From assembly GCA_938091905.1 (NCBI GenBank), contig CALKOM010000001.1:47138-111137 (forward strand): a stretch of 64,000 nt of DNA, given 5' to 3'. Numbering within the stretch: position 1 is the first letter of the stretch; each line of letters starts with the position of its first letter. Below are positions 40,885 to 45,108 of the stretch, one piece after another. The position numbers were made by a program, and so were the translations under genes. The DNA comes from an uncultured Verrucomicrobiales bacterium. Its GTDB lineage: Bacteria; Verrucomicrobiota; Verrucomicrobiia; Verrucomicrobiales; DEV007. The notes below the pieces were generated by a model. That model was given only the letters and a program-made list of their open reading frames with translations. It did no database searches and was not told the origin of the DNA.

Positions 40885-42822
40885 CTAACGCAGAAACGGT
40901 TTGCCTTGCTGATAGAGCGATAGGCGGCCTTTCAGCTCCTTTATCAACCTGTCATTACGCTGTTTCCGTGCCATGGCGAGCGCACGCTGCGTGAGCTGAC
41001 TGGCCTTCTCAAACTGCTGGTTACTGGCCAGAGCAGTGGCAGCCGTATCGATGGCATGGGGATTGTTTGAGAATCGTTGGAGGATCTTCTGAGCCAAGGA
41101 CAGAGCACGTCTGGGATTGCGGAAAGCCGGGTTGCGACTGGTCGAGAGTACCCAGCAAAGCTGATTGAGTGTTTGGAAATCATCGGGCTTCACTTTGAGT
41201 GCGAATTCGTAGATCGCGGCTGCTTGATCATCTTGTCCAAGACTCTGGTAGGTGTTCCCCAACTGTACTAAGACATCGTGTTGTTTTGGAGCCCGCTTGA
41301 GGAAAGTCTGGAGAATGGTTGCTGCTTCCTTTCCGCGTCGGAGTGCGGTAAGCGTGCGGGCATGGGCGAGCGTCGCTTTGGAGTGTTGGGGATTCAGCTT
41401 CGTTGCCCGTTGGTAGAATGGAAGAGCGATCTTGGGCAAGGCATTCTCCAAGCGATAGGTTTCTCCTAACATATACTGAATATCGGCCTCTTGATAACGC
41501 CGTTTCGCAGCTTCCCCCTCGTCAACCTTGGCGAGCGCCTCTTCGAGATAGCGTCGAGCATGTTCGTTGTAGCCGCCCTCGAGGTAAACTCGAGAAATGG
41601 CCACCGGATGGGTGATAAAGTGATCATTTGACCAGCGACCTGGGAATGGAATGGCATGGTCAGGATGTTTGGAGACGGGTTGTTGTAGGCGCTGGGTCTG
41701 TGCTAGGATCGAGTCTGCCGAGACGGCTCCTTTGGTGAAGCTTACAAGACTTCCACGATGCCAAAGGAAGCTACTAGGCAGAGGGAGGGCTTCCTGTTTG
41801 TAGAGAGTGTTGCGCTGGGCTTGATCGAGAGCCTCGACCATTTCTTGACTGGCACGGCCGGAAGCGAAGGGCCAATTGAGCTTCCTTAGACGTTGCTCCA
41901 GTGCCTTGGGACTTGGGGCTTCCGTACCTTCGATTTTTGACTGAGCCTCTTCGATGTTCAGGGCGACGACTTGAATACCCGCGTTCTGAATGGCCTTATG
42001 TTGCGTTGATAGGAGTTCCATTTCCTTAAGGCAAGGCTGGCACCAGGATGCCCACAGAAGGGTGAGGGTGAGTGGTTGGGTGTCAATGGTGGCGGTGCTA
42101 CCTGACCAGGTGCGGTAGCGAAGCGTCGGTGCAGAACGGGGCTCCGATAGATAGGTCTCCATCGTTGGAGGTGGACTCGGTAGCGTCAACGGTGTTGCTT
42201 TCAATGCAATGGCAGCTTGTTTCGCGGCGGTCGCTTTGCCTGTCCCCTGACGAAGGTGCCATCGGCCGGAGGGTTTCGCTTCGAAAGTCTCGCCTGCCGT
42301 CTGACCTGGCCATGTCACCTGAATCTTTGTTGTTGTGGCTTTGCTACCGAGCCCGAAGTGAAGCCACTTGCTGGACTGGCTTAGGAAGCCATCGCCTGCG
42401 GTGACCTGGCGCGTGAGCTTGGTCCTATCCGAAAGAGTTATGGTGGCGATGGCACCGATAGCATCGCGTGGCGTCCCTTTGCTGGGATCACCTTCGAGGC
42501 GAAGGGCAAGTGTTTTAGCTTTTGTTAGGTAGTCGTTTCGGAGCAGACGCACTCGAGGTCCGGTGCGATTGCTCACCCAGAGATCCAGATCGCCATCTCG
42601 ATCCCAGTCGGTGATGGCAAGGGCGCGGCCGTCGTCTGGCAAACCAAAGCCAGACATCAGGGAGACGTCGGCGAAGCGCTTCCCACGAGTATTGAGAAAG
42701 ACACTATTTGGTTCGCGACCTGAGAAGGAATTGCCGTTTCGGATGCGCGTGGCGAGATCTTGCCAGGCATCGAGGTAGCCTTGGCCCGGAGTGGTAGTTT
42801 CTTTGCTAGGACTTTGCGACAC
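40885..42822 (-). CDS. ASPIC/UnbV + thioredoxin-like (WCQPC) + TPR region; probably the C-terminal half of a UGA-readthrough protein
   Basis: SFSGREPN, DWDRDGDLD, AIGA, GFLSQSSKWLHFGLG, WASWCQPC, C-terminal TPRs. In frame with the upstream ORF; the GTG start has no clear RBS. Confidence 0.8.
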   Translation of the reverse strand: MSQSPSKETTTPGQGYLDAWQDLATRIRNGNSFSGREPNSVFLNTRGKRFADVSLMSGFGLPDDGRALAITDWDRDGDLDLWVSNRTGPRVRLLRNDYLTKAKTLALRLEGDPSKGTPRDAIGAIATITLSDRTKLTRQVTAGDGFLSQSSKWLHFGLGSKATTTKIQVTWPGQTAGETFEAKPSGRWHLRQGTGKATAAKQAAIALKATPLTLPSPPPTMETYLSEPRSAPTLRYRTWSGSTATIDTQPLTLTLLWASWCQPCLKEMELLSTQHKAIQNAGIQVVALNIEEAQSKIEGTEAPSPKALEQRLRKLNWPFASGRASQEMVEALDQAQRNTLYKQEALPLPSSFLWHRGSLVSFTKGAVSADSILAQTQRLQQPVSKHPDHAIPFPGRWSNDHFITHPVAISRVYLEGGYNEHARRYLEEALAKVDEGEAAKRRYQEADIQYMLGETYRLENALPKIALPFYQRATKLNPQHSKATLAHARTLTALRRGKEAATILQTFLKRAPKQHDVLVQLGNTYQSLGQDDQAAAIYEFALKVKPDDFQTLNQLCWVLSTSRNPAFRNPRRALSLAQKILQRFSNNPHAIDTAATALASNQQFEKASQLTQRALAMARKQRNDRLIKELKGRLSLYQQGKPFLR

Positions 42823-44631
42823 GACCTGCCGCCAGTAGAAGCCTCACAAATCACCGGTGTCTTCCTGAGTGATGAAGCCATTGGCCACAATCAAATCTTG
42901 CCAACCGTCATTGTTGAAGTCGGCAAAGGCAGATCCCCAGGCCCAGCGTCCTTGGGTGACAGCAGCGGACACGCTGACATCCTCGAAGCCCTTGCCAGGT
43001 CCGAGATTGTGGAAGAGGGAGTTTCCTCTGGCGTGCCGGACAAATAGATCGCGGGTGGTGGTGTCTTCGTTTGCGAGGAAACGGGCCTGCTTGGCGATTC
43101 GATTACCTGCGGAGGAGAACATGTTGCTAACATAGATGTCAAAAAATCCATCGTTGTCGTAATCACCCCAGGCGGCGGACATTCCGGCAGCGATGTCGAG
43201 CGTACCGCTACTCTCGGCCACGTCAGTGAATCGAATTTGGTCTCGGACCTTGTCTTGGCGGTAGAGATTGTTGCGACCGAAATCATTGGCGACATAGAGA
43301 TCGAGATCGCCGTCCCGATCATAGTCTGCCCACGCTGCTGCATAGCTGTAACGCGTGTTGTTCGCATCGAGCCCCACTCGTTGGGTCACGTGGCGAAAGC
43401 GGAACTCGCCGTCATTTCGCAACAGCGAATTACGGCCGCCATTGGTGGCATCTTGATACGGCACGGGACGAGCTAGGGCCACGTTTCTATCCACGTGCCC
43501 ACGACGATCGTAGCAGGCTGCAAAGATGTCTAGATCGCCGTCCTGATCGTAGTCTGCGGCAGCGAGTGAGTAGGGGACCGCAAAGGGGAGTACCTCGGCA
43601 GAGCGCACGGTGAATCGTCCCGAGCCATCGTTCTCTTGGATAACGAGGCCTTCGGCTACGGAAACGACAAGGTCCTGATCGCCGTCGTTGTCGAGATCAA
43701 TGAAGAGGGCACCTCGGCTAGTTTCTAACCAATCTACTCCGGCCGCAGTAGCGACATCGCCTGCCGTGCCATCGGCGCGTGCAAGGAACAAACGGTTGGG
43801 CAAGCCGCCACTCTGACACACGTAGAGATCCTCCATACCATCACCATTGGCATCGCCAACGGCCAAGCCGTTCCATCCCCCCACTTTGAGGCCGACGCGC
43901 GTATCGAGTCGAGCCAGCCAATGATCCAGACCGTGAGCGAGTTGGTTTTGAAATGCAGGATCGCGACCGACCACTGTGGCTGTCGCTTCTGTGAAGAGAG
44001 CGCCTCGCGTTGATGTGGTGATGACCTCTTCGTAGTCATCGACAATGAAACGTTCCAAGGCGAGTGACGTTCCCGTCCGTTTCCAGCTGCATGACCAAGT
44101 GCTATTGACTTGTAAGTCCTTGCCATCGGAGGTTTCACCATCTAACCGAATTTCTAAGCGGGTTTCCACCCGTGTTGCGGAAGTTTCCACGCCGACCGTC
44201 TTAAACTTTACATTGAGTGGGCCTGTACTTAGTCCCTTGGTTAGACTCAGAACTGCTTGGGTCCAGCCACTGGGCCCATGAAGCTTGTCCGATGCGTCGC
44301 GACCGGCGCGGTGGACTTGCAGGACATCGTCGATGTATGCCTGGTCGCGCTTCGTCGGACGTAGCGGGGCGCCGCGAAAGTTGTGAGCAGCAATTCCTTC
44401 TAATCCGGCTGCTTGAGTGCCAGAGGCGAGCGTTTCTTTGAGGGCTTCAAGGCGCGAGCTGGTGACTTCGGCAGCTTGTTCGCTATCCCAGCCGCCATGA
44501 CTAGGATCGTACCTTGGGGTGGCAATACCAGTACCCGGCACTGCAGGGGGGCTTGTTTGTGCAACGGCGCTAGGTCCTCCTAGGAGGATCGCGATGAAAG
44601 ACAGGAGGGGAACGCGCCACATGGTGAACAT
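40885..44631 (-). CDS. candidate selenoprotein, 1248 aa with Sec at residue 596 (FG-GAP - Sec - ASPIC/UnbV - Trx CxxC - TPR)
   Basis: Single in-frame TGA at 42844-42846 in GAT TTG TGA GGC TTC TAC TGG CGG CAG GTC GTG = DL*GFYWRQVV. A SECIS-like hairpin follows immediately. Confidence 0.72.
42808..42846 (-). promoter_or_regulatory. putative bacterial SECIS element
   Basis: UGA GGCUUCUACUG GCGGCA-GGUCG-UGUCGC AAAGUCCU. The upper 6-bp stem starts 11 nt after UGA, the loop begins with G, and the lower pairing is AGGCUU/AAGUCCU. Confidence 0.7.
42844..44631 (-). CDS. secreted FG-GAP/VCBS-repeat (CRTAC1-like) region; probably the N-terminal half of a UGA-readthrough protein
   Basis: Signal peptide; six DxDxDGxxD-type repeats (DANGDGMED, DLDNDGDQD, DYDQDGDLD, DYDRDGDLD, DYDNDGFFD, DFNNDGWQD). 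Ends ...DTGDL-TGA. Confidence 0.85.
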   Translation of the reverse strand: MFTMWRVPLLSFIAILLGGPSAVAQTSPPAVPGTGIATPRYDPSHGGWDSEQAAEVTSSRLEALKETLASGTQAAGLEGIAAHNFRGAPLRPTKRDQAYIDDVLQVHRAGRDASDKLHGPSGWTQAVLSLTKGLSTGPLNVKFKTVGVETSATRVETRLEIRLDGETSDGKDLQVNSTWSCSWKRTGTSLALERFIVDDYEEVITTSTRGALFTEATATVVGRDPAFQNQLAHGLDHWLARLDTRVGLKVGGWNGLAVGDANGDGMEDLYVCQSGGLPNRLFLARADGTAGDVATAAGVDWLETSRGALFIDLDNDGDQDLVVSVAEGLVIQENDGSGRFTVRSAEVLPFAVPYSLAAADYDQDGDLDIFAACYDRRGHVDRNVALARPVPYQDATNGGRNSLLRNDGEFRFRHVTQRVGLDANNTRYSYAAAWADYDRDGDLDLYVANDFGRNNLYRQDKVRDQIRFTDVAESSGTLDIAAGMSAAWGDYDNDGFFDIYVSNMFSSAGNRIAKQARFLANEDTTTRDLFVRHARGNSLFHNLGPGKGFEDVSVSAAVTQGRWAWGSAFADFNNDGWQDLIVANGFITQEDTGDL

Positions 44632-44673: not shown

Positions 44674-45066
44674 TTACCGGCCCTCGTCCTGAGCTTTCTC
44701 AATGGCGCTCATCAATTCCTCATACTCGTCCCGATCCAGCTTCATCTTCTTGTCTGCCAAATGGGCAGCCAAGGCGCGTGAGAAAGACCCATCGAAGAAC
44801 GTCTTCACGACATGATTGAGCATCTTGGCACCAGTCTTGGCACGAGCAGGCCGAGGCATGTAGAGGTAGTTCCTGCCCTCTTTGCGACGCTTCACAAGCC
44901 CTTTATCCTCTTCAAGGATTTGCAGCATTCGCCGGATTGCCATGGGCGTTGGAGCCTTCGGCAGTTTTGATTGAATTTCGAGCACAGAGGCCTCACCTAC
45001 TTCATAGAGGATATCGAGGATCTGACGTTGTCGCCGAGAGAGATGCTTCTGGAAGTCAGTATTCAT
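44674..45066 (-). CDS. BlaI/MecI/CopY-family transcriptional repressor
   Basis: LSRRQRQILDILY..GEASV.EI, L..LEE.KGLV.R.K.GR.Y.Y.P, V.TFFDGS. ATG at 45066. Confidence 0.9.
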   Translation of the reverse strand: MNTDFQKHLSRRQRQILDILYEVGEASVLEIQSKLPKAPTPMAIRRMLQILEEDKGLVKRRKEGRNYLYMPRPARAKTGAKMLNHVVKTFFDGSFSRALAAHLADKKMKLDRDEYEELMSAIEKAQDEGR

Positions 45067-45092
45067 GGCAGCCGAGGAGTTTGAAGGATCCA

Positions 45093-45108
45093 CGCTATGA
45101 AAGTAGCG
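45093..45108. promoter_or_regulatory. palindrome CGCTA-N6-TAGCG, candidate autoregulatory operator
   Basis: Perfect 5-bp inverted arms 27-42 nt upstream of the BlaI-family ATG. A related half-site CGCTACTTT lies at 45146-45154. Confidence 0.5.

Follow-up and report, generated by a model that had tools for sequence, protein, structure and literature searches.

A predicted selenoprotein family on a CRTAC1-like propeller in the Verrucomicrobiales

Several described systems resemble the locus reported here. The SelB-dependent selenoprotein genes, with a selenocysteine (Sec) insertion sequence (SECIS) downstream of an in-frame UGA, include fdhF of E. coli, a similar SECIS-dependent gene. The CRTAC1/ASPIC-UnbV proteins (PF13517 plus PF07593) join an FG-GAP beta-propeller to an ASPIC/UnbV domain, and the TlpA/ResA reductases have a thioredoxin fold with a WCxPCxxE motif. 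In Neisseria PilB a TlpA-like domain is fused to MsrA/MsrB in a DsbD-fed system that recycles an exported catalytic domain, and is used here as an analogy only. We analysed a window of 64,000 nucleotides from an uncultured Verrucomicrobiales bacterium (assembly GCA_938091905.1, contig CALKOM010000001.1, positions 47,138 to 111,137 of the forward strand), and describe in it a gene, interrupted by a single in-frame UGA, that we predict to encode an exported selenoprotein; all positions given below are those of the window unless a contig is named. The consensus for bacterial SECIS elements, as set out in PMC13188914, is a loop of 3–9 nt beginning with G and then G or U, a stem of 4–16 bp, and a distance of 16–37 nt from the UGA. 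Passages of PMC10477339 describe animal CRTAC1 proper as having a calcium-binding EGF-like domain after ASPIC.

The gene resembles SelB/SECIS genes in its in-frame UGA, in a coding-region hairpin with a 5-nt loop (GG/GU) 17 nt on, and in the presence of selA, selB, selC and selD. It is unlike known bacterial selenoproteins in that the predicted Sec sits in a beta-propeller outside any UxxC/CxxU-like motif, there are few cysteine homologs, and the family has ten copies in this genome. It shares with CRTAC1/ASPIC-UnbV proteins the FG-GAP propeller, the ASPIC/UnbV domain and the CRTAC1 fold, but adds an N-terminal domain, a Sec-bearing helical insert and TlpA and tetratricopeptide repeat (TPR) domains; animal CRTAC1 has an EGF-like domain past ASPIC, where Pfam shows none in this protein but instead TPRs and a thioredoxin-like domain. 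The WCxPCxxE thioredoxin fold is that of the TlpA/ResA reductases, whereas here the domain is fused, reaches 33 of 230 bits for TlpA (NF047696) and 31 of 170 for ResA (NF002854), and the Sec lies elsewhere. In contrast to PilB, Pfam and NCBIfam scans show no MsrA/B homology, and the catalytic scaffold would be the propeller.

Re-translation of the minus strand from 44631 to 40885 gives one frame of 1248 codons with exactly one internal stop, a TGA at codon 596 in the context ...FITQEDTGDL*GFYWRQVVSQSP..., and the frame terminates with TAG at 40887–40885. The original prediction, made from the letters alone, had described two open reading frames (ORFs) separated by one UGA with no other lesion, and had anticipated that gene callers would report two genes; both statements are borne out, with ORF calling returning pieces of 595 aa (42844–44631) and 645 aa starting at GTG (40885–42822). 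It had also placed a further FG-GAP repeat past the stop, and Pfam puts repeats on either side of the TGA, one of them after it. The strand, the TlpA-like WCQPC domain, the TPRs, the hairpin and the nine paralogs were no part of that prediction. Contigs X9 and X10 from two independent marine metagenome studies span the entire gene with 10 and 11 differences and leave the TGA unchanged, and so do not bear out the refutation named at the outset, reads that fail to support TGA. The nearest named record is a Verrucomicrobiales metagenome-assembled genome with 96% identity across the junction. A nonsense mutation or assembly error confined to one genome is refuted by the TGA of nine paralogs, 26 related genomes and these two contigs, and has nothing specific in its favor beyond an assembly of 212 contigs, leaving it a negligible probability.

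We consider that UGA596 is decoded as selenocysteine to give one 1248-aa protein, with a probability of roughly 0.92–0.93, as had been proposed from the letters and as is now supported by the machinery, the TGA of relatives and the independent contigs. The genome (6.19 Mb, 95% complete) contains tRNA-Sec, selA, selB and selD, each above its curated cut-off, the four genes whose presence had been named as a check. Nine further paralogs carry TGA at the same column, making ten copies with 25–41% identity. The TGA here is not due to chance, because all ten close paralogs share the TGA column and all ten pass a strict hairpin filter.

Relatives retain the codon as well. This genome and 60 relatives were compared, and 28 of these 61 have a match to the family; there are 226 matches, and 149 of the 150 listed have one TGA, so the sense codon that might have been expected in close relatives of a simple mutant is not what is found. 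Of the 32 genomes with selA (one of these genes is partial and one split) 26 have the TGA form, and of the 29 without it none does, a co-occurrence for which we give no p value because related genomes are not independent. In addition, selA is present in all 14 further genomes chosen for a TGA match, and in one with an Asp form. Within the order, 60 of 301 genomes have matches to a pattern that permits TGA, TAA, TAG or TGG, 300 matches in all and up to 20 per genome; among the 150 of these listed there are 145 TGA, five TGG in chance-like, unrelated-looking contexts, and no TAA or TAG. The TGA-only pattern found none in 250 genomes drawn from across the phylum, 12 of which have selA, and the distribution of the family is therefore patchy. 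TGA forms are also present in records of Planctomycetota and of Thermoanaerobaculia (Acidobacteriota).

Downstream of the UGA, a stem formed by positions +12 to +17 and +23 to +28 closes a GGUCG loop. This geometry, with its 5-nt loop, 6-bp stem and 17-nt spacing, fits the PMC13188914 consensus given above. The minimum free energy is −13.8 kcal/mol for 47 nt against a required value of −7.5 or lower, and the bare 6-bp hairpin is borderline at −7.3. The same loop type is found at +19 in the genome's own fdhA, and a SECIS-type hairpin follows the TGA in each of the ten paralogs. Among 54 distinct sequences 94.2% of cells are paired, with 17 two-sided changes; none of 500 shuffles does as well and all slid registers are worse, figures that related sequences can inflate. 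Synonymous codon choice in 55 genes provides evidence that is independent of the folding model: Val+7 is GTC in 49/54 (background 37%), Val+8 is GTG in 47/49 (42%), Ser+9 is TCG in 39/40 (23%), and Ser+1 is AGY in 47/47. Moreover, the third base of Arg+5 tracks the first base of codon +9, being CGC with Ala GCG (7/7) and CGG or CGA with Ser TCG (38/38). The strict filter passes 141 of 16049 TGA, 60 of 7769 TAA and 79 of 10669 TAG contexts in the genome, and recovers six selenoproteins of known types, FdhA among them, as well as the ten paralogs. Rfam has no family covering the hairpin, and its one match is a chance one (E 5.3).

Two other accounts of the UGA deserve comment. Readthrough without a Sec-tRNA, by Trp or Cys insertion or by hairpin-stimulated leakage, draws some support from the uniform AGY at Ser+1 and the mostly TTG codons at Leu−1, which suggest selection on the stop context, and from the many residues that homologs tolerate at the Sec column. 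However, Trp is absent there from both sets of aligned homologs, ordinary genes of this genome also end in TGA, its tRNA-Trp reads CCA while tRNA-Sec has the anticodon TCA, the hairpin matches the fdhA SECIS in type and place, and the TGA form strictly co-occurs with selA; we regard this reading as very improbable. Slightly more improbable still is a true, conserved stop with re-initiation of a second chain at the GTG 22 nt on and assembly of both halves into a propeller. That GTG is retained in 47 of 55 genes, gene callers give separate proteins beginning MSQSP or finishing GDL, and termination at UGA596 is to be expected when selenium is short. Against this, a real stop should drift to TAA or TAG, neither of which appears among the 150 matches listed, and TGA forms turned up only alongside selA. 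The codons from the stop to the GTG are conserved as protein, unsplit homologs included, and the second half lacks a signal peptide, judging from its sequence. In 5 of 54 genes GCG or ACG replaces the GTG and the stem changes to compensate; it is therefore the pairing, not initiation, that is conserved.

Numerous full-length homologs have a sense codon at this position and the same architecture, and the two halves are therefore one protein. Their records are named as TPR, VCBS, FG-GAP, peroxiredoxin-fusion or hypothetical proteins, none as a selenoprotein. In 135 aligned rows from 150 matches, an alignment that includes some poor rows, the Sec column contains Glu 40, Asp 22, Ser 21, Ala 12, Asn 11, Met 5, Gln 5, Cys 4 and a few others; 93 of 109 new matches give Asp 36, Glu 22, Cys 7, Ser 7, Ala 7, His 5, Gly 5, Asn 3 and Arg 1. 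The original prediction looked for Cys or a conserved TGA in homologs: the TGA is there in abundance, and Cys only weakly so (4/135 and 7/93). It had also named Trp, Gly or Arg at the column as damaging to the selenocysteine reading; Trp is in neither set, and Gly and Arg are rare. When a FastTree phylogeny is rooted on the two Cys paralogs, forms with Sec occupy deep branches as well as the crown with 14 state changes, a pattern that fits an old, putative Sec site lost several times.

The protein is predicted to be exported. Pfam scores the FG-GAP repeats at 134 bits, above the cut-off, and places a thioredoxin-like stretch with WCQPC at residues 858–956; the N-terminal domain (about residues 40–205) matches no Pfam family. 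A model of residues 40–1010 from an 86-row alignment has a predicted local distance difference test score (pLDDT) of 94.6 and a predicted template modelling score of 0.95 across the junction; single-sequence folding gave a pLDDT of 34 and was not used. In the model, a helix inserted in the propeller begins with Sec. The best structural match is murine CRTAC1 (PDB 9ETN; Z 37.5, root-mean-square deviation 2.3 Å over 454 aligned residues, 21% identity), with a Foldseek E of 2.7e-23 to CRTAC1, the next propellers at Z 29, and a phmmer E of 6e-15 to the CRTAC1 family. A later domain matches ResA/TlpA (PDB 1JFU and 2F9S; Foldseek E 3e-8 to 4e-8). The loop residues R511, W563, W565, W600, R601, S637 and E640 are conserved and near Sec in sequence.

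Some residues track Sec. The CxxC is intact in all 50 Sec forms bearing the TlpA domain vs 18/131 other forms, Lys144 is present in 51/54 vs 3/131, and Ser637 in 54/55 vs 30/139; these counts are from 194 of 201 selected rows, from which a motif filter had removed some Cys forms. In an earlier alignment the CxxC was present in 53/54 Sec forms vs 8/84 others. The TlpA domain of P0158, a homolog with a natural Cys at the Sec site, is predicted to dock on the propeller with an ipSAE (an interface score) of 0.81 (best control 0.00), with runs sharing at least 84% of contacts and a partner pLDDT of at least 80. Of 157 solved pairs 116 attain that docking mark, and of 215 mismatched pairs 2 do; a pass is expected here because both parts belong to one chain.

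A mechanism can be proposed, with Sec inserted by the usual bacterial pathway. SelB would bind the GU-tipped hairpin 12–28 nt past the UGA and deliver Sec-tRNA made by SelA and SelD. The selenolate, at the helix start of the CRTAC1-like propeller, would attack a substrate gripped by the conserved Arg and Trp loops, with Lys144 and Ser637 perhaps stabilising or orienting it. The fused TlpA-like CxxC domain, whose reductase activity is predicted to be fed by DsbD/CcdA, may then re-reduce the selenolate, and the TPRs could bind partners. The paralog expansion suggests many substrates. Of the functions considered, we rank highest an extracytoplasmic redox enzyme of the thiol/selenol kind, which its own TlpA domain would recycle, at somewhat better than even odds, ahead of a non-redox ligand or nucleophile and of an adhesin or sensor.

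Several observations weigh against the selenocysteine reading or its redox extension. Cys is rare at the Sec column of homologs, where Asp, Glu, Ser, Ala and Asn prevail; this is atypical, and it means that the fold is widely retained without a chalcogen at the site. The energy of the hairpin by itself is unexceptional (z −0.78), and in RNA runs X15 and X16 short, sparse contigs flank the TGA with none crossing it, which leaves transcription unshown. On the tree, the joint loss of CxxC, Lys144 and Ser637 with Sec falls short of significance (4–6 independent pairs, p 0.125–0.5), with almost no pairs in the opposite direction, and several recent Sec losses retain the CxxC. There is no invariant resolving Cys, as Cys643 is found in 23/55 and is missing in this copy. 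Four deep-branching short Sec forms stop soon after the ASPIC domain and lack TlpA, and both the Sec-equivalent Cys and the CxxC are missing from the interface contacts named for P0158.

The last two points also favor the strongest competitor, in which the selenolate has no redox role and acts as a ligand or nucleophile, for soft-metal or metalloid binding or for hydrolysis or transfer in an anion-binding pocket, and TlpA serves only for maintenance. The anions Asp and Glu are the commonest substitutes, and the association with Sec is tighter for Lys144 than for the CxxC. However, helix starts in general favor Asp, Glu, Ser and Asn, the CxxC is intact in every one of the 50 Sec forms bearing the TlpA domain, and no conserved neighborhood points to a metal or substrate; we think this role unlikely. 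Less likely again is a non-catalytic CRTAC1-like adhesin or receptor, in which Sec would sense redox state or the UGA and SECIS would act as a switch dependent on selenium. CRTAC1, the nearest structure, is non-enzymatic, many homologs retain the architecture without Sec or CxxC, and TPRs and paralog expansion suit binding proteins. Nevertheless, the Sec-specific conservation of Ser637, the CxxC and a Lys in another domain resembles an active site, and a pure switch would not pin the codon to one column beside the invariant W600 and R601. Beyond the redox enzyme itself, we put forward as a doubtful extension that these proteins form a new class of extracytoplasmic selenoenzyme, combining a propeller Sec with a Lys site from the N-terminal domain and recycling by the fused TlpA, in which Cys would be a poor substitute, so that lineages losing selenium would keep a dead Asp, Glu or Ser form.

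The recoding mechanism is a known one, and the protein family appears to be uncatalogued; it is unusual in its scaffold, its copy number and the scarcity of Cys counterparts. Table 1 of a 2026 catalogue, PMC13188914, lists 119 prokaryotic selenoprotein families and has no FG-GAP, ASPIC, CRTAC1 or propeller entry. A scan of the 1248-aa protein with NCBIfam found no model attaining its cut-off, selenoprotein models included, and such models do match other genes of this genome. The view that the protein stands outside the classical selenoprotein families thus holds for these two sources, as far as each extends. PMC12013277, PMC13326102 and PMC13745706, whose main texts were searched by term, yielded no such entry, and passages of PMC4807772, PMC3174227 and PMC10477339 contain no such selenoprotein. 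A literature search whose coverage left out most subscription journals and the BSepDB family list returned no report of a selenium form of the CRTAC1/ASPIC family. A supposed link between UnbV and enediyne clusters found no supporting paper and was dropped.

The predicted family would add a large, multi-phylum group of selenoproteins, with records in Verrucomicrobiota, Planctomycetota and Acidobacteriota, on an uncatalogued scaffold. It also points to a blind spot, in that searches for Sec/Cys pairs would miss a site with Asp, Glu or Ser in homologs. The family accounts for 10 of the 16 assigned selenoproteins of the genome, a figure in which other selenoproteins are undercounted, and how much selenium these marine bacteria are estimated to use would change accordingly. 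Many split gene calls would be corrected, and the function-poor CRTAC1/ASPIC-UnbV family would gain a marked residue for testing. If the new-enzyme-class proposal is true, its 10–20 copies would be the main Sec consumer in some marine Verrucomicrobiales, and the CRTAC1 fold would have had an enzymatic past.

Table 1. Features of the gene and its upstream neighbor, in window coordinates.
Feature	Coordinates	Strand	Basis
Single gene, 1248 aa, predicted exported selenoprotein	40885..44631	-	translation, Pfam, model; sense-codon homologs of equal architecture at full length
Probable signal peptide, residues 1 to ~24	44560..44631	-	hydrophobic stretch in sequence, judged by eye
N-terminal alpha/beta domain, ~40-205, with Lys144 (44200-44202)	44017..44514	-	predicted model; no Pfam family
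FG-GAP beta-propeller, ~210-700	42532..44004	-	Pfam, predicted model
Predicted selenocysteine TGA, codon 596; starts a helix as residue 557 of the model	42844..42846	-	frame, conservation, model
Bacterial SECIS hairpin (predicted), +12 to +28 after UGA, 6-bp stem, GGUCG loop, G18-C21 pair, G19-U20 tip	42816..42832	-	folding, codon choice, covariation
GTG (Val603), called start of second ORF; in 3' stem strand	42820..42822	-	ORF calling, covariation
ASPIC/UnbV domain; PF07593 at 724-778, 55.6 bits vs cut-off 23.4	42241..42531	-	Pfam
TlpA/ResA-like thioredoxin domain, W-C864-Q-P-C867 (42031-42042)	41686..42162	-	Pfam, structure matches
TPR repeats, ~1040-1230	40942..41514	-	Pfam
BlaI/CopY-type repressor gene, neighbor directly upstream	44674..45093	-	ORF calling, Pfam; system membership not indicated

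The repressor gene upstream has no protease partner adjoining. A BlaI/CopY-type repressor is found at the equivalent place in L082, and not beside the remaining paralogs. Comparison of 12 paralog loci shows no conserved operon, and a promoter and terminator scan gave signal at or below chance. The gene is unlinked to the sel genes in its own genome. The distance from a family gene to the selenium genes is 3 kb in G045, where these are arranged selD-selB-selA, and 17–22 kb in a pair of genomes from a single genus. The cluster in that genus (G487:C52 and G410:C7; L217–L220) consists of selD, selA, a putative selenate ABC transporter and selB; senB sits between it and a family copy, and G487 adds arsR-gapdh-arsJ there.

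Some family members differ from the common form. Two distant paralogs of 750–770 aa (G000:C179:15556-17805 and C36:2117-4435, minus strand) have Cys (TGC) at the Sec column, and neither has the family-type hairpin or a TlpA domain. A Phycisphaeraceae homolog (L097:4160-4162), from a genome with selA, has Asp at the column, no hairpin, and SxxS replacing the CxxC. In a deep-branching TGA form (L203, G029:C19; L077) the downstream sequence differs and the hairpin is farther from the UGA. The only relative with no stop, L162 (G008:C14:89196-89612), still has an intact hairpin and reads TTG AAG CTT TTC; because this has the appearance of 2-nt and 1-nt deletions or of a long-read error, we excluded it from the sense alleles. 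As selA is in two pieces in G008, an assembly artefact is possible for L162.

Ten of the 131 other TGA candidates from the strict filter were put through family scans. Six are of known selenoprotein types, namely FdhA, VPGUxxT, TUGYCR and Trx7/PDZ, all over cut-off, together with UxxC proteins of Prx-like and DsbD type; two (C22 and C29) turned out to be ordinary gene ends, and two are unclassified. The DsbD (G000:C171:9911-12208, plus strand; L215), under the TsoB cut-off, has its UxxC and hairpin in the C-terminal thioredoxin domain and is a possible electron source for the propeller family. The selD match (G000:C162:524-1435, minus strand) lies inside a 797-codon open frame, with the matched part stop-free, and is probably an oxidoreductase-SelD fusion resembling that of G045. 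One unclassified candidate, L209 (G000:C24:41242-42834, minus strand), is a 531-codon frame with an in-frame TGA, a hairpin and no family, and may be two genes or another selenoprotein. The other, L212 (G000:C114:49036-50922, minus strand), matches no NCBIfam family and carries a SECIS-like hairpin together with an in-frame TGA whose preceding codon is Cys (...KRC*VFAG...); the stretch looks thioredoxin-like by eye, and L212 is possibly an uncatalogued selenoprotein.

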